64,000 nucleotides of DNA. It comes from Candidatus Latescibacterota bacterium (GTDB taxonomy: Bacteria; Latescibacterota; UBA2968; UBA8231). The position numbers and the translations under genes were made by a program. Positions 49,099-56,039 of the stretch are shown one piece after another. The DNA lies in NCBI GenBank assembly GCA_965206595.1, contig OZ242214.1, positions 2,016,001 to 2,080,000 of the forward strand. Reading direction: 5' to 3'. Positions within the stretch are counted from its first letter, which is position 1. Every line of letters starts with the position of its first letter. The notes under the pieces were generated by a model. It had not been told where the DNA came from, ran no database searches, and saw only the letters and a program-made list of their open reading frames with translations.

Positions 49099-50607
49099 TT
49101 ACTCGGACTTGCGCGCGTTGGCTTTCAGCTCCTTGAGCCGCTGCGCGGCTTCCGAGCTCCTGTAGAAATCGTCAAGAGGGAAACAGCCGCTGACCATGCC
49201 GTTGCGCGGGGCCGTGGTGCAGTCGCTGAAGGTGCGGCAGATCAGCTTGCGGGCCAGCCGCCCCCCGCCGTGGAGCAGATCGTGCGGCAGGTCGGGGTAC
49301 GACAGCACCATGCGGCCCAGGCCGACGAAATCGATCGCCCCCGAGCGCACCGCGGCCTGGGCGACGTGGGGCAGAAACTCCTGCAGGTAGCTGTACCCCG
49401 ACCCCACGAACACACGGTCCGGGAACCACCTCTTCAAGCGAGCGGCGGCGGCGATCTGCCTGGCCACTCCGGCGAGCGGGTCCTCGGGCGGCTGGTACCC
49501 GTCTGAGGGAGGAAACAGCGCCGGACGCTGAATGTGGGGGTTGTAGTACGGGCTGCCGCAGGTGAGGTTGACGAGGTTCACCCCCCACTCGCCGAGGGCG
49601 GCAATGAAACGGCGGGGCTCGTCGAGATTGATTTCCAGCGGATCCCGGGGGTCGAGGCCGAACCCGTACTGGTAGGGCAGAAGGGTATCGAAAGGCTCGG
49701 GGATCCCCGTGCCGGGCTTGCCTCCGCCTTCGCCGGGACCGGAACGAAACGGCACTAAGTCATAGACACTAAGGCGCACTCCCACTTGCATTTGTGGCGC
49801 TTCGTTTCGAATTCCCTCCACGATCTCTCGACAGAAACGGGTGCGGTTCTCGAAGGAGCCGCCGAACCTTCCTGGACGGGTGCGCGCGCTCAGCAGCTCG
49901 TGGCCTAGATAGCCATGGCAGTGCTTGACGTCGACGAAGTGGAACCCAGCGTCGCGGGCGATGCAGGCCGCTTCGACGTAGAGCTCGATCAGCCGTTGCA
50001 GATAGTCGTCGGAGACGGGCGCATGGCCGGGGTCGAGTCCGAACCTGCGGTCGAGGATCGGGTGCCGATATGCGATGCAGGGCTCCATCCGGTCCTTGCG
50101 GAAGGGCCGGCAGAAGCGGCCGGAATGGGTCAGCTGCAGGCCGACAACGAGGTCGTCGACCGAGCCGAAACGCTCCCGGTGCGCCGCGGTGAGGATCTCC
50201 CACAGCTCCCGAACTCCGTCGCGAGTCGTGGCGCAAGCCATCAGCTGGTTGGGATTCGCCCTCCCCTCGGGGCACACGGCAAACGCCTCGCCCCCCCAGA
50301 TCAGCTTGGCGCCGCTGCGCCCGAAGTTGCGCCAGCGCCGGCGCACGTACTCGGTGGGCATGCCCTCCCCGGTGCCGTCCCAGCCCTCCATCGGCTGGAT
50401 GGCGAAGCGGTTTCCCGCACGCCTTTCGCCAATGGCGCACGGCTGTGCCAGCGGCGATTCGGGCGCCGACAGCGGCGCTTCGTCACAGGGAAGCGAGGCC
50501 CCGATGGCCTCGAGGTGGGCGCGGAAATCGGCGACCTGCCGGAAGGCGGACACCCGCGGATGCCGGTCCCGGCGCCGCGGGGCCTCTCCCGAATCCGTCT
50601 CAGCCAT
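49099..50607 (-). CDS. NADH:flavin oxidoreductase (Old Yellow Enzyme family)
   Basis: [42 protein letters not shown] 50607 overlaps the lgt stop. Confidence 0.88.
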
Positions 50608-51382
50608 CGGGGCTTCGGCGGTCACGCGCTTCCGGGTCGGACCTCAGCAGGTGTACGGTCCCCGCGATTCCTGCGACCAGCAGCGCCAAGCTGATCAGCT
50701 GCGCCCCGGTCAAGCCCCAGGCCTCGACCGGATTCAGGCGGATGAACTCCACTGCGAAACGGGCGCCGCCACTGAGCATCAGGTAGAGGAAAAATGTGGC
50801 GCCGGGCACCCGCAGGCGCATCCGCGTCGACCAGAGGAGGGCGAAGATCCCCAATCCCATCAGGGTCTCGTAGACCGGGGCGGGGTGGACTTTCTCGAGG
50901 GTGGGGACGACGCCGTCCGGGTACGCCATCCCCCAGGGCAGATCGGTGGGCACGCCGTAGTCGCCGTCCCCGGCCAGCTGGCAGCCGATTCTGCCGATGG
51001 CGTAGCCGATCGCCAGACCGATGCCGACGGCGTCGGCCACCTCCGGCAAAGGCGCGCCGCGGCGGCGCACCACCCAGATGACCGCGGCCGTCGCCAGAAG
51101 GAAGCCGCCGTGCCAGGTTAGGCCGCTGCCGGAGAACACGGCGCCGAGAGACTCGCTCCAGGTGGCCCCCGGTGGAAGTTCGAAGAGGATGAAGTAGAGC
51201 TTGGCTCCGGCGAGGCCGGCGAGGATACCGGCGGTGAGGATGGAGGAGGCGAGCTCGGGATCTATTCCCTTGCGGCGCAATTCCTTCTGGATGAAGTAAT
51301 GGCCGGTGAGGAAACCGAGAACGACCATGGGACCGAAGGTGGGCAGCTTGAAGCCGCCGATTTCCAGCCAGTAGGGGTACAT
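50600..51382 (-). CDS. lgt: Prolipoprotein diacylglyceryl transferase
   Basis: [46 protein letters not shown]; multi-TM. Confidence 0.9.
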
Positions 51383-54300
51383 CAGCCCGTCGCCCCGGCG
51401 GCGCTGCCGCCGCCTTCATCCGCTTTCCCGGCGAGACGCGCGATCTCCCGCCGCACCTGCGCGGTGACCTCCCTGTAGACCTCGTAGTTCCCCAGGCGCT
51501 GGCGGCGGGCGGCGTACGGGGCCATCTCCACGGGGGGGCCGAAGTTAAGCCGCACCGGGTTGCGGCGGGGAAAGCGGCCGTGTTTCGGCAGCGCTTCCCG
51601 GGTACCGAGGACGTGCACCGGCACGATCGGCAGGTCGAGCTCCACCGCCAGCAGCCCCACCCCGGTCCTGAACGCCTGCAGCCGGCCGGCCGGCGACCGC
51701 GTTCCCTCCGGAAAGACCAGCAGCGGCCTGCGCACCCCGATCAGGCCGCGCAGGGCCAGCAGGCTTTCGAGAAACTCCTCCTGCCGGTCGAAGGGGACGG
51801 CGTCGAGCATGGTGCGCAGGAACCAGCTGAGCAGCGGCGACCTGGAGAAGTAGTCCCTTGCCGCGGCGAGGCTGAGGCGGTCGACGTGAGGCCTGACCGC
51901 CAGCAGTATGGAGGGGGCGTCGAGATGGCTCGAGTGATTGGCGGCGATCACGTAGGGCCGGTCGGCTGGAAGGTGCTCCAGTCCCCTGGCCTTCAGCGAA
52001 AAATAGAGGCGGAACAATCCCCCACCGGCGCTCCAGAATGCTTCCCGCAGGGCCCCGGGACCGCCATCTGCCGGGCGCCTGTGTTCCCTGTTCCCGTCTT
52101 CTCCCCGCAGCGCCCGGGTCCAGTACCCGCCATCGTCCGCCTGGGAAACGATCCCCTTTCCGGCTGCCGAAAACTGAGGCTCCAGTTTATCCATCAGGCT
52201 TCTCAGGGTCGGGCTGCGGTGGATCTGCCGGGGAAGCGAACGACCGAGCGTCTCCTCGACGACCGCGGCGAACTCGACCGACATCAACGAGTCGAGCAGG
52301 CTGTCGAGGGGGGCGTCGCCGTGGGCGAGCACCTCGGCCGGCGTCAGTCCAGTTATCCTGCTCAGCAGGTCGTAGACCGATCTCTCCCACGGCGCCAGGC
52401 TTTCGTCGACCTCGACCTCGGCGCCATGCAGCTGATGCTGCAGCTCCTCCAGCACCTGAGTCCGGTCGACCTCACCGGCGTGGTTGCGCGGCAGCGGCCG
52501 GCTGCGCACGTGCAGGCGCTGAATGCGCTGGTAGGTCGGCAGGTGGCGGGAAATCCCGTACGCCGCCTCCCTCACCCTCGAGGCCTCGGCCTCGCCGCCC
52601 CCTTCCTTCAGGACCGCCACCCCGTGAGCTTCCTCGCCCAGGGTGCGCGGGGACCTCACCCCGACGACGCTCAGCTCCGCCACCTCGGGCAGGCCGCGGT
52701 ACAGCCCTTCCACTTCATCGGGATAGACGTTTTTCCCCGCCCCGGTGACGATCAGGTCCTTGCTGCGGCCGGTGATGAACAGGTACCCGTCGTCGTCGAC
52801 GTAGCCGATGTCCCCGCTGTGCAACCAGCCGTCCTTGAGGACCTCGGCCGTCAGTTCGGGACTGTCGAGATACCCGGGCGTGACGTTGGGACCGCGCACG
52901 AGGATCTCGCCGCAGCCGCGGGAGTCCGGCTCGTCGATGCGCAGCTCGACCCCGGGCAGCGGGATTCCGACCGACCCCGGCCTGGCTTTTGCCGGCGGGT
53001 TGACGGTGACGATGGGGGACGTCTCCGTGAGGCCGTACCCTTCGTACACGGTAACGCCCTTGCGCCGGTAGCTCTCGAAGATTCCCGGGGCCAGGGGCGC
53101 GCCGCCGCTGACGACGAGCTTGAGCCTGGAAATCAGGGCGGCGCTGTCGCGATTCAGGGCGTTGCGCTCCTCCTCGCCGTGGCGGCCGAGACGTTCGATG
53201 CGATCGGCGAGGATTTTCAGCAGCCGCGGCACCGCGAGCAGGGCTGTCGTACCGGTTTCACGCATTGCATCGAGGATGACCCGGCTGTTGAGGGTCTCGA
53301 GGTAGGTGATCGTCGCCCCGCTCAGCAGGGACATCAGCAGCGAGCCTGTGAACTCCAGGCCGTGGTGAAGAGGTAGCAGGGAGAGGACGCGATCCCCCCT
53401 GTCGAGGCGCTGCACCTCGGCCAGGGCGAGCAGGTCGGAGAGGAAATTGCGGTGCGTCAGCACCACTCCCCTCGGTTCGATCGCGGTGCCGGCCGTGAAG
53501 ATGATCGACGCCTCCATCTCCGGGGTGACGCCGGACGGTTTCCGGTTCCCCTGCGGCTCCGCTCCGGAGCTCTCCGACGGGAACGGCCTGCCTTCGTTTT
53601 CGAGGTCGAAGACAGGCAGCGGCCAGCCGGCCAACCCCGACCCCGTTTCGGGGTTCAAAGTCTCGAAGCAGGCGGGCGAGGCGATCAGGGCCCGGGCCCG
53701 GGTGAACGCCGCCAGCTTCCACACCTCCTCCCCACGGGTCTGGGGATCGACCGGAACCACCGTCAGACCGCCGATCGACGCCGCCATGTAGGCGATCACC
53801 CACTCCGGACTGTTTCCCGCGTACAGCAGCACGCGGTCCCCCGACTCGAGCCCCCAGCGCTGCCACAAGTCCGCCTGGGCTTCGGCCCGCGCCAACAGCT
53901 CCCCGTAGGCAACCGTGACCCAGGACTCCCCGCGCTTCATCTGCAGGGCCGTTCTCTCCTCGTAGCGGGCGCACGACCAGCGCAGCAGATCGGGAATCGT
54001 CTGCAGCTCCTCTTCCTGCTGCCAGCGCTCCTCTTCCGAGCCGACCTCGGCGGGGGCCTCGCGGAAGATCTCCTTTTCCCCGTCCCCCAGGACGTGCCGC
54101 CTCAGTCCGGGCAGATGGACGTCGCAGATGTAGCGCTCCCAATCGATGCGCTCGACGTCCATGTTGAAATCCTGCCGCTCCCCTTCCGGCAGAAGCGCGT
54201 AGAGCGCGCGGGCGCGATCGGTGGCAAAGCTGCAGTTCAGGTGGGTGTACGGATGGTAGATGTCGGCGTAGTAAAGGACCCTCTGCAGCCGGATCTTCAT

Positions 54301-55680: not shown

Positions 55681-55799
55681 CTCGTGACCTGTCCCGTCAT
55701 CTCGCGGCACTGCCGGCGCTCGCCCATCCCACTCGGGGGCCTTGCGAGGCGGGGGCCTCGGCCGCGCAATCCTGGCAATCCATTTCCGGAACGGAACAC

Positions 55800-56039
55800 T
55801 TATTGTTGATCAGAGTCGGAGGGGTCGGCGGCGCGGGGACCTTGAGTCGAGAGGTCCGATCCGTTGCCTTCCTGTTCTGTCCGTTGGCGGTCGGAGCCCT
55901 GCGGGGGCTCGAGCCCCTGCCCGGTTATGTACGGGTGCCGGAAATGCTTTCTCAGCGCCTCCAGGAGCGGCTTGTCCAGCCGGTCCGGGGCGCCGTCGCC
56001 GCTGCCGGTTCCGTCTTCGGGACGCCTCGCCATTGCCAT
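55800..56039 (-). CDS. Small hypothetical protein upstream of the ElbD-like gene
   Basis: 79 aa, GGAAGGA RBS, ordered core LDKPLLEALRKHFRHPYITG flanked by disordered tails. Confidence 0.45.
   Translation of the reverse strand: MAMARRPEDGTGSGDGAPDRLDKPLLEALRKHFRHPYITGQGLEPPQGSDRQRTEQEGNGSDLSTQGPRAADPSDSDQQ

Follow-up and report, generated by a model that had tools for sequence, protein, structure and literature searches.

Among the closest described relatives of the locus analyzed here is the elb operon of Myxococcus xanthus (elbA-E; MIBiG BGC0000871), in which ElbD (Q1DC43) joins an N-terminal FAR1-like reductase (FAR), an ACS, an ACP, and an AGPAT-like acyltransferase (AT) in a single chain (PMC9131029). 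That account lists the five products as an epimerase, a HAD-like protein, an unassigned protein, ElbD, and a further epimerase; lgt is not in its list, and the FAR and acyltransferase activities of ElbD are called putative (PMC9131029). As far as published descriptions of elb clusters treat their gene neighborhoods, they make no mention of adjacency to lgt. ElbD homologs in sponge Latescibacterota have already been reported in a 2026 preprint, whose text gives ElbD tBLASTn matches in metagenome-assembled genomes of this phylum and names it a possible ether-lipid producer (bioRxiv 10.64898/2026.06.23.733905). The words lgt, diacylglyceryl, lipoprotein, and oxidoreductase are absent from the main text of that preprint; thus, operon partners of the kind described below are not discussed there. 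In Escherichia coli Lgt (PDB 5AZB/5AZC), Y26 is described as touching the sn-2 ester oxygen of phosphatidylglycerol (PG), and the Y26F mutant as inactive (PMC4728403).

We analyzed a 64,000-nt window from the genome of a Candidatus Latescibacterota bacterium (GCA_965206595.1, contig OZ242214.1). Three genes lie on its minus strand in one tight overlapping row, an ElbD-like gene followed by lgt and by a gene for a protein resembling Old Yellow Enzyme (OYE). The features of the locus are as follows.

51382..55710, minus strand: ElbD-like multidomain enzyme with FAR, adenylating (A), ACP, and PlsC/AGPAT-type acyltransferase parts (Pfam domains, conserved motifs)
51380..51384, minus strand: TGATG stop/start overlap of the ElbD-like gene and lgt (sequence read)
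50600..51382, minus strand: lgt, of a divergent "type B" subtype and without a second Lgt-family gene in the genome (PF01790, TIGR00544, alignment to E. coli Lgt, residue tallies)
50600..50625, minus strand: 3′ end of lgt overlapping the start of the OYE-like gene, by 8 nt (ATG start) or 26 nt (GTG start) (sequence read)
49099..50625, minus strand: OYE-like FMN oxidoreductase of ~500 aa (PF00724), with an alternative ATG start at 50607
55711..56133, no strand: divergent intergenic region that separates the ElbD-like operon from the lipid kinase and Mla-like genes (ORF map)
56134..57057, plus strand: YegS/DAG-kinase-family lipid kinase, divergently transcribed (NCBIfam TIGR00147)
57210..61619, plus strand: Mla-like lipid transport genes (NCBIfam and Pfam), comprising the next four lines
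57210..58181, plus strand: MCE/MlaD
58186..58983, plus strand: ABC_trans_aux lipoprotein
58985..60514, plus strand: ORF without an assigned family
60528..61619, plus strand: STAS-MlaE permease

The initial annotation had placed the three genes correctly, and its TGATG overlap matches our reading of the junction exactly (GGC TGA TG TAC, with the TGA stop at 51384–51382 and the ATG start at 51382–51380). The overlap of lgt with the OYE-like gene is likewise real, measuring 26 nt if translation of the latter starts at GTG 50625 and 8 nt if it starts at ATG 50607 (ATGGCTGA). The annotated span covers the genes, but its end at 56,039 lies ~330 nt beyond the ElbD-like ORF, inside the divergent intergenic region. 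Promoters are presumed in that region from gene layout only, since no sigma-70-like consensus was found in 55711..56133. Both operon junctions are spanned by RNA-library contigs, and such contigs, from runs labeled sponge metagenome, match the locus at 92 to 99%; the habitat is thus probably shared with the sponge-associated Latescibacterota of the preprint. The lipid kinase exceeds the TIGR00147 cut-off, at 152.9 bits, and thrC-like and ilvD genes (NCBIfam, Pfam) are the other neighbors of the operon.

The ElbD-like ORF encodes 1442 aa from its first GTG or 1432 aa from an ATG at residue 11, and its Pfam map agrees with the FAR, AMP-binding, ACP (DSL), and PlsC set that had been proposed for it, in the order reviewed for M. 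xanthus ElbD. The N-terminal FAR1-like reductase consists of NAD_binding_4 (residues 23–366, E 4.6e-59, 200.1 bits) and Sterile (475–542, 42.6 bits) domains and contains the Rossmann motif GGTGFLG and a YxxxK motif, YTFTK. It is followed by an acyl-CoA-synthetase-type adenylating domain with motifs A3, A5, A7, and A8, composed of AMP-binding (PF00501; 577–948, E 6.6e-70, 236.3 bits) and AMP-binding_C (999–1079) segments. The PP-binding match (PF00550; 1112–1174) scores 19.7 bits, just below the 20.8-bit cut-off, and its DSL phosphopantetheine serine motif (LLDSLMSVEF) is invariant in 16/16 aligned homologs, that is, in 17/17 aligned sequences. The C-terminal AGPAT/PlsC-like acyltransferase (PF01553; 1240–1366, E 2.6e-22, 79.5 bits) carries the HX4D motif NHSSHLD as well as FPEGTR. 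All of these motifs, together with GYGLTE and GRSKD, are kept across homologs. The search returned 438 relatives of 793 to 2524 aa at E ≤ 1e-20, the best 120 of which span 1074 to 1480 aa.

By domain description, the protein, with a putative ACP as its third part, shares the four-part architecture and order of M. xanthus ElbD, but its adenylating domain, like that of the rest of its clade, lacks the A10 lysine and reads AGEVDR at the site. Its surroundings differ from the elb operon: as the initial annotation had it, no elbB-type (HAD-like), elbC, or elbE-type (epimerase) neighbors were found by Pfam and NCBIfam around the gene, and lgt and the OYE-like gene stand in their place. In this respect, the locus resembles the "standalone" elbD of sponge-associated Latescibacterota, an ElbD homolog of the same phylum outside an elb-type cluster (bioRxiv 10.64898/2026.06.23.733905). 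Its DAG-kinase-type neighbor is shared with some of the sponge elb-like clusters that have been reported.

The lgt product, at 260 aa shorter than the 300-aa 5azb chain, matches PF01790 over its full length (155.9 bits against a cut-off of 24.9; profile positions 1–238 of 240) and remains below the TIGR00544 equivalog cut-off (102.9 against 118.9 bits). Its pairwise match to E. coli Lgt (5azb) is weak, at E 2.2e-9. A genome-wide profile search found no second Lgt-family match in the 7.05 Mb genome (G000), and the single match to signal peptidase II (lspA, PF01252) lies at 6.22 Mb, ~4 Mb from lgt. As the sole Lgt-family gene of a genome with lspA elsewhere, the lgt of this operon is the housekeeping copy. 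The "dedicated" Lgt first proposed is therefore not borne out; a single housekeeping copy is among the outcomes that the initial annotation had itself named as counting against its reading.

Equivalents of the catalytic residues R143 and R239 and of E243, E202, and R246 are kept in 121/121 sequences of the type B subtype. The E. coli-essential residues Y26, N146, E151, Y235, and H103 correspond to F, C, D, S, and H in the window, with a one-residue shift at G154. Phenylalanine occupies position 26 in 112 of the 121 sequences, and six of six unlinked relatives of the same subtype retain tyrosine; the Y26F change is probably one evolutionary event. Position 235 is S, A, or T within the family and is, like 26, 146, and 151, a PG-contact site. 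Unlinked Lgts, too, show N146C and E151D, and the H103 position is tyrosine in 87/121 sequences, the window Lgt keeping the histidine of HGG. Variation at these five positions is also seen where other families have a single Lgt copy, so the positions do not define the Lgt family. The family Lgt shares only 27 to 30% identity with the canonical Lgt found in sister families.

The OYE-like ORF (508 aa) matches Oxidored_FMN (PF00724) with 82 bits against a cut-off of 27, but only over residues 59–291 and profile positions 2–231 of 342. The matched part is the N-terminal two thirds of the profile for the TIM barrel of Old Yellow Enzyme and 2,4-dienoyl-CoA-reductase-like FMN oxidoreductases; unlike that family, the protein has ~200 C-terminal residues in which Pfam finds no match. 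Every NCBIfam match is far below cut-off, and the nearest Atlas clusters are of ~485 aa, all Oxidored_FMN, and drawn from several phyla. Orthologs are present in 121/151 genomes of the phylum, where outside the family they adjoin unrelated genes.

Within the window's own family, the FAR/ElbD-Lgt-OYE order is near-universal. The type B Lgt is carried by 59 of 65 sampled family genomes, ~49 of which rely on it alone. Lgt adjoins the OYE-like gene in 56/56 family genomes with coordinates for both, as compared by eye, and in 30/30 family loci compared for gene order. In 29 of these 30 loci, a FAR-containing gene lies upstream of lgt (24 AT-ended, four FAR-only, and one A-ended), and the remaining locus is cut by a contig end. 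FAR is thus the constant partner and the A-ACP-AT part varies; a search of the FAR-only genomes for a close A-ACP-AT gene elsewhere found none. The trio stands together, often with overlapping frames, in at least 16 of 18 sampled genera, and the flanks (±8 kb) are also syntenic, including the lipid kinase in 8/8 full loci (it was not detected in loci L024 or L025). Two genera depart from this order. Genome G061 has a 1481-aa ElbD-like gene without adjacent Lgt or OYE, a canonical Lgt on a different contig, and no OYE match in the genome; G118 has lipid kinase, FAR, and OYE together, with a canonical lgt on a different contig.

Outside the family, the adjacency disappears. All three genes are present yet widely separated in six sister-group genomes; G057, G068, G110, and G008 carry Lgt, OYE, and a stand-alone FAR homolog (41–44% identity) 89 kb to several Mb apart. 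Genome G011 (f10) cannot show dispersal, as the search found no FAR-domain match there and only a weak OYE relative (~45% identity). Five further genomes share the Lgt subtype (42–44% identity) and have FAR on a different contig or no closer than 300 kb. Neither lgt nor FAR was found beside OYE orthologs at 16 loci outside the family, and no Lgt of any type or OYE occurs in 80 metagenome loci that were retrieved through ElbD-like proteins; FAR, AT, or both are matched in 18 of these loci, and both in five. The proposed elbD-lgt synteny consequently holds within one family, where the whole neighborhood is syntenic, and was not seen in sister families or in metagenome ElbD-like loci. Nonconservation in relatives was another outcome named as speaking against a new elbD-lgt pathway, and it is largely what we find: of the original reading, the domain set and the overlapping genes on one strand stand, and the dedicated Lgt and the new pathway are not supported.

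These data suggest that the locus is probably a lineage-specific operon of one Latescibacterota family, here in a sponge-associated member, whose adjacency reflects gene-order history rather than an obligate pathway; shared regulation of envelope lipid genes perhaps contributes. In it, an ordinary lgt would share a transcript, and be coupled in translation, with the lipid-modifying reductase gene that precedes it and the conserved OYE-like gene that follows. Judging from domain families, the adenylating domain would activate a long-chain fatty acid and load the in-cis ACP, a step made less certain by the missing A10 lysine; the FAR domain would use NAD(P)H to reduce the thioester to a fatty aldehyde or alcohol, and the HX4D acyltransferase would acylate a glycerol-phosphate-type acceptor. 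By analogy with ElbD, these steps may feed alkyl-ether or fatty-alcohol-derived glycerolipids. Lgt would transfer the diradylglyceryl group of PG to the lipobox cysteine of all prolipoproteins, with subsequent cleavage by LspA, and the OYE-like enzyme is predicted to be a phylum-wide reductase. Gene-order history is consistent with the single-copy lgt and distant lspA, the syntenic flanks, the dispersal in sister groups, the lack of lgt and FAR at outside OYE loci and of lgt in the ElbD-like metagenome loci and among the listed elb genes, the variable upstream partner and the two exceptional genera, the five residues kept throughout the subtype, and the RNA-library contigs across both junctions. 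Retention of the trio in most genera could, on the other hand, indicate selection for co-expression, and the divergence of the family Lgt with its F at position 26, together with the lipid-themed neighborhood (lipid kinase, Mla-like transport), also fits less easily.

The same observations could instead mark a functional module of FAR (with or without A-ACP-AT), type B Lgt, and OYE-like protein that builds an alkyl-acyl-glyceryl lipoprotein anchor: the reductase would give alkyl or alkenyl chains, the OYE-like enzyme would reduce an unsaturated or vinyl-ether intermediate, and Lgt would fit an ether-PG donor. The tight order (56/56 for Lgt-OYE, 29/30 for FAR upstream), the constancy of FAR rather than A-ACP-AT, the bridged junctions, the family-specific Y26F with N146C, E151D, and Y235S/A/T at PG-contact residues, and the preprint's mention of Latescibacterota as possible ether-lipid producers all point this way. 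We nevertheless consider it unlikely, given a sole Lgt and hence no dedicated paralog, three genes scattered in sister groups, and canonical Lgts in G061 and G118, one of them lacking Lgt/OYE beside its ElbD-like gene and the other lgt between FAR and OYE. The residue changes are also weakened as evidence by N146C and E151D in unlinked Lgts, by the frequent tyrosine at H103, by the nonuniversality of the E. coli "essential" residues, and by the probable single origin of Y26F. It is similarly doubtful that the sole Lgt was drawn into a FAR/OYE-like module and its PG-contact residues, notably Y26F, changed for an ether-containing donor. Only this minority reading would hold a real surprise, an alkyl-acyl-glyceryl thioether lipoprotein anchor, which has not been described so far in bacteria.

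Two further explanations were weighed. An Aas-like A-ACP-AT might re-acylate lysophospholipids, for example from lipoprotein N-acylation, and the fatty alcohols from FAR might go into wax esters or storage lipids, with no ether lipid and with lgt linked through envelope lipid homeostasis. The known link between Aas, lyso-PE, and Lnt favors such a role, as do the two acyltransferase motifs and the 178- to 216-bit matches of NCBIfam Aas models (acyl-[ACP]--phospholipid O-acyltransferase) to the adenylating region. Those matches are confined to residues 728–985 and stay far below their cut-offs (1221 and 1349 bits), the domains are arranged as in ElbD and not as in Aas, and lgt remains linked in the FAR-only genomes, where A-ACP-AT is lacking, all of which makes this role improbable. 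Far less credible still is an Lgt-family protein that forms the ether bond, transferring a glyceryl-lipid group to a FAR-made fatty alcohol instead of modifying lipoproteins. The altered donor-site residues would suit it, and in the ElbD route the reaction that forms the ether is presented as lacking a known enzyme (PMC9131029); against it, lipoprotein processing would miss its first enzyme in a genome that has lspA and no other Lgt, ~49/59 family genomes with the subtype have no other Lgt either, and the catalytic arginines and overall Pfam match are intact.

Read as a lineage-specific operon, the locus is of modest interest overall, and its value lies mainly in annotation, in recording an ElbD-type enzyme for a member of the Latescibacterota associated with sponges. 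The divergent Lgt, the sole Lgt in most family genomes despite missing E. coli-essential residues, is useful to those carrying E. coli Lgt structure–function rules or inhibitor ideas into other phyla. Within one family, the ElbD architecture is modular: one and the same locus can encode FAR alone, FAR-A, or FAR-A-ACP-AT.

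The source genome (G000) is one contig of 7.05 Mb, and within the window its minus strand carries, head to tail, an ElbD-like gene, lgt (prolipoprotein diacylglyceryl transferase) and a gene for an Old Yellow Enzyme-like FMN oxidoreductase (OYE). ORFs, Pfam matches and the sequence at the junctions fully confirmed the gene order, domain set and both overlaps described in the initial annotation.

Features of the operon and of two further genes (window positions unless a contig is named)
51382-55710, minus strand: ElbD-like gene, 1442 aa, with the following Pfam domains
Residues 23-366 of the ElbD-like protein: NAD_binding_4
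Residues 475-542 of the ElbD-like protein: Sterile
Residues 577-948 of the ElbD-like protein: AMP-binding
Residues 999-1079 of the ElbD-like protein: AMP-binding_C
Residues 1112-1174 of the ElbD-like protein: PP-binding, at 19.7 bits, below the 20.8-bit cut-off
Residues 1240-1366 of the ElbD-like protein: Acyltransferase
50600-51382, minus strand: lgt, 260 aa, PF01790 over the full length, 155.9 bits
49099-50625, minus strand: OYE-like gene, 508 aa, Oxidored_FMN match at residues 59-291 of its product
56134-57057, upstream of the operon and divergent: YegS/DAG-kinase-family lipid kinase
G000:C1:3305799-3308825 (locus L149:5799-8825), minus strand, outside the window: A-ACP-reductase protein, 1008 aa

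The ElbD-like stop and the lgt start have one base in common (TGATG at 51380-51384), and lgt overlaps the OYE-like ORF by 8 nt if the latter begins at ATG (50607) or by 26 nt if it begins at GTG (50625). A promoter and terminator scan was uninformative: it gave no promoter-like site and five terminator-like ones, with 4.3 expected. The window sequence is almost wholly present in six sequencing runs of unstated kind, and about 9% of its sampled words occur in four runs from RNA libraries, all from a single study and labelled sponge metagenome; small word shares and contig-free parts of the stretch were not counted as evidence. RNA-library contigs of 92-99% likeness cover parts of all three genes, with two spanning the ElbD-like/lgt junction (X2 record 13, 51333-51824; X3 record 19, 51094-51524) and one the lgt/OYE overlap (X2 record 11, 50500-50658). 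These contigs do not prove transcription or one transcript and lend weak support to expression of the operon in a close relative.

As reviewed in PMC9131029, ElbD combines FAR1-like (fatty acyl reductase), ACS, ACP and AGPAT-like parts and is encoded in an operon with elbA (epimerase), elbB (HAD-like), elbC (unknown) and elbE (epimerase); the ACS and ACP activities of ElbD have been shown, those of FAR and acyltransferase are described as unproven, and the ether-forming step of the route is given as unknown. As far as architecture goes (domain set and order), calling the window protein ElbD-like is sound. The motifs GGTGFLG, YTFTK, GYGLTE, GRSKD, NHSSHLD and FPEGTR and the serine of LLDSLMSVEF are intact and are kept in 16 homologues down to 38% identity. 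Alignment with these homologues places PRNHAGEVDR at the A10 position of the adenylating domain (residues 1074-1083), where the lysine is replaced. The same replacement (AGEVDR) is found in the window's clade and in all aligned ElbD-like homologues except five, three of which are more distant Planctomycetota-type proteins with a TLKV[RK]R-type lysine. Judged from this residue, adenylation may be impaired or proceed in another way. Unlike the elb operon, the window has no HAD-like elbB-type or NAD-epimerase elbE-type gene near the ElbD-like gene.

For Poribacteria and Acidobacteriota, a 2026 preprint on sponge symbionts (bioRxiv 10.64898/2026.06.23.733905) describes elb-like clusters, and for Latescibacterota MAGs it gives "standalone elbD hits"; DAG kinases and G3P acyltransferases are noted beside certain elbD genes. 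Its main text contains none of the words lgt, diacylglyceryl, lipoprotein or oxidoreductase. Among the listed titles and abstract openings of papers matching both prolipoprotein diacylglyceryl transferase and ether lipid, none deals with a connection between elbD and lgt. An ElbD homologue is already in print for Latescibacterota; within the reach of these searches, the operon partners are not.

The initial annotation had proposed a dedicated Lgt. This was not borne out: a six-frame search of the genome with PF01790 gave exactly one match, the window lgt, which is thus the housekeeping copy. Signal peptidase II (PF01252) is likewise present once, at 6.22 Mb. The window Lgt is thus the sole candidate to start lipoprotein maturation. 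Each of five relatives has a syntenic lgt copy, to which one (G001) adds a second, canonical copy (227 bits). Across 65 genomes of the window's own Latescibacterota family, G000 included, the window's divergent subtype (at least 52% identity) occurs in 59, and 10 of these also carry a canonical-like Lgt of 29-34% identity; two genomes of genus g3 have the canonical-like form only. Lgt was unmatched in four of the 65, which are 77-91% complete.

Family Lgts are 27-30% identical to the canonical Lgts of sister families and to the second copy of G001, and 42% identical to the Lgt of genome G057. We tallied residues in 121 Lgts of the clade, the window's included, by alignment to E. coli Lgt (5azb). 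R143, R239, E243, E202 and R246 never vary; all 121 have C at the N146 position, 120 have D at that of E151, and 120 have A, S or T at that of Y235. The histidine of the HGGL motif (H103) is kept in 34, among them the window's, and is Y in 87; sole-copy Lgts from other families of Latescibacterota likewise have Y or F here. The position of Y26 holds F in 112, Y in six and a gap in three. According to PMC4728403, Y26 of E. coli Lgt hydrogen-bonds the sn-2 ester oxygen of PG, and the Y26F, H103Y and E151A/Q mutants and most Y235 changes are inactive. H103Y and N146C are also seen in sole-copy Lgts unlinked to FAR, so the residue rules from E. coli clearly do not hold universally. The one change that tracks FAR linkage is Y26F, Y26 being kept in six same-subtype relatives unlinked to FAR; most simply it was one event in the family's ancestor, and we keep it as a hint, without explanation.

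The gene order is confined to this family, where the whole neighbourhood is syntenic. In a species-level genome collection, Lgt and OYE follow an ElbD-like or FAR gene in 9/9 loci, and nearly all genes within ±8 kb of the eight full-length loci are syntenic as well. OYE was found in 121 of 151 genomes of the phylum (59/63 in family f1; 30/30, 19/19 and 2/2 in families f2, f3 and f4; 4/5, 1/1, 4/13 and 1/1 in f8, f7, f10 and f14). By eye, Lgt adjoins OYE in all 56 family genomes with coordinates for both, and OYE lies downstream in 30/30 family loci viewed at ±1.5 kb around Lgt. The gene upstream of Lgt in these 30 loci is acyltransferase-ended in 24, FAR-only in four (genera g10, g15 and g18), adenylating-domain-ended in one (g12) and cut by a contig end in one. 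A third architecture, at locus L064 (genome G093, g12; P0098, P0099), places a FAR + adenylating protein of ~1075 aa, without ACP or acyltransferase, directly upstream of lgt. FAR-only genomes contain no close A-ACP-AT gene (the remaining domains of the ElbD-like protein) elsewhere, the best matches being generic ligases of 28-34% identity, so we ruled out a "split ElbD". In G061 (g3) an ElbD-like gene (1481 aa) stands between Mce and thrC-like genes; Lgt and OYE are replaced there by a GFO_IDH gene, and a canonical Lgt is encoded elsewhere in the genome. In G118 (g16) the order is lipid kinase-FAR-OYE with no lgt between FAR and OYE, and a canonical-type lgt sits on another contig.

Outside the family, neither Lgt nor FAR lies near OYE at any of 16 orthologue loci from seven other families (38-62% identity); Pfam matches on 39 adjoining ORFs included 2-hydroxyacid dehydrogenase, MreB/MreC, xylose-isomerase-like TIM, transketolase and GFO_IDH_MocA. 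Four complete or near-complete genomes (f2, f3, f7) encode one Lgt, a FAR homologue that stands alone (41-44% identity, frames of 540-630 aa) and an OYE orthologue, 89 kb to several Mb apart; the f10 genome G011 gave no FAR-domain match. The window's Lgt subtype also occurs in five additional genomes (42-44% identity), where FAR is at least 300 kb off or on another contig. Among the matches listed in an Lgt protein search, all had at least 58% identity, which is silent on the subtype's occurrence outside the family. An alignment of ElbD-like proteins of distant kinship, whose patterns are generic (EGYGLTET), was used to scan metagenomes and returned 80 loci, mostly plain acyl-CoA ligases. Of the 80 loci, 18 had a FAR and/or acyltransferase match and five had both; three Lgt types and OYE were absent, and since many loci are short (18 informative) this is moderate evidence only. 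Locus L010 (FAR-only + Lgt + OYE, titled Planctomycetota) was rejected as an independent second phylum because its coordinates are those of G142 (= G005), which genome kinship places in the window's family, genus g7. Close relatives are publicly titled Gemmatimonadaceae, Gemmatimonadota, Planctomycetota or Handelsmanbacteria MAGs (L005, L007, L010 and several protein names); given the kinship of L010, such labels look outdated or mis-binned.

We conclude that the three genes probably form an operon specific to this lineage, in which envelope-lipid genes act independently of each other. The new lipid-conjugate pathway proposed earlier is unsupported, with linkage in one family only, syntenic flanks and genes scattered in sister lineages. 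This scatter, and the occurrence of an ElbD-like gene (G061) and a FAR-OYE pair (G118) without this lgt, also speak against FAR, Lgt and OYE being a true module whose Lgt is adapted to ether lipids, a reading we consider unlikely. An Aas- or wax-type role of the large enzyme seems improbable, and a non-lipoprotein role of the Lgt homologue is a very distant prospect.

Upstream, beyond the lipid kinase, lie genes for an MCE/MlaD protein, an ABC_trans_aux lipoprotein, a 509-aa ORF and a STAS-MlaE permease. In this Mla-like row, the 509-aa ORF (58985-60514) has no family match and the permease (60528-61619) has a STAS domain fused N-terminally to MlaE. Downstream are a convergent thrC-like gene, then ilvD, then an amidohydrolase gene. 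From its first start, the thrC-like ORF (47641-49023) has ~85 low-complexity N-terminal residues not common to relatives; tblastn matches begin at residue 42-101, and its true start probably lies further inside. Window G+C is ~0.58-0.64 in 1-30000, then ~0.64-0.70 in 30001-64000.

A second NAD_binding_4 ORF (3.306 Mb) was rejected as a FAR-GNPAT/AGPS locus. Its 1008-aa product is an A-ACP-reductase with the order AMP-binding, PP-binding, NAD_binding_4 (carboxylic-acid-reductase or NRPS-terminal-reductase type), and its gene adjoins a BNR-repeat gene and a DNA-methylase gene, with no AGPS cluster. Three FAD-oxidase_C genes lie outside the window (G000:C1:443484, 2946866 and 6234349), with frames of 613, 480 and 539 aa; if one encodes alkylglycerone-phosphate synthase, the organism would have a second ether-lipid route.
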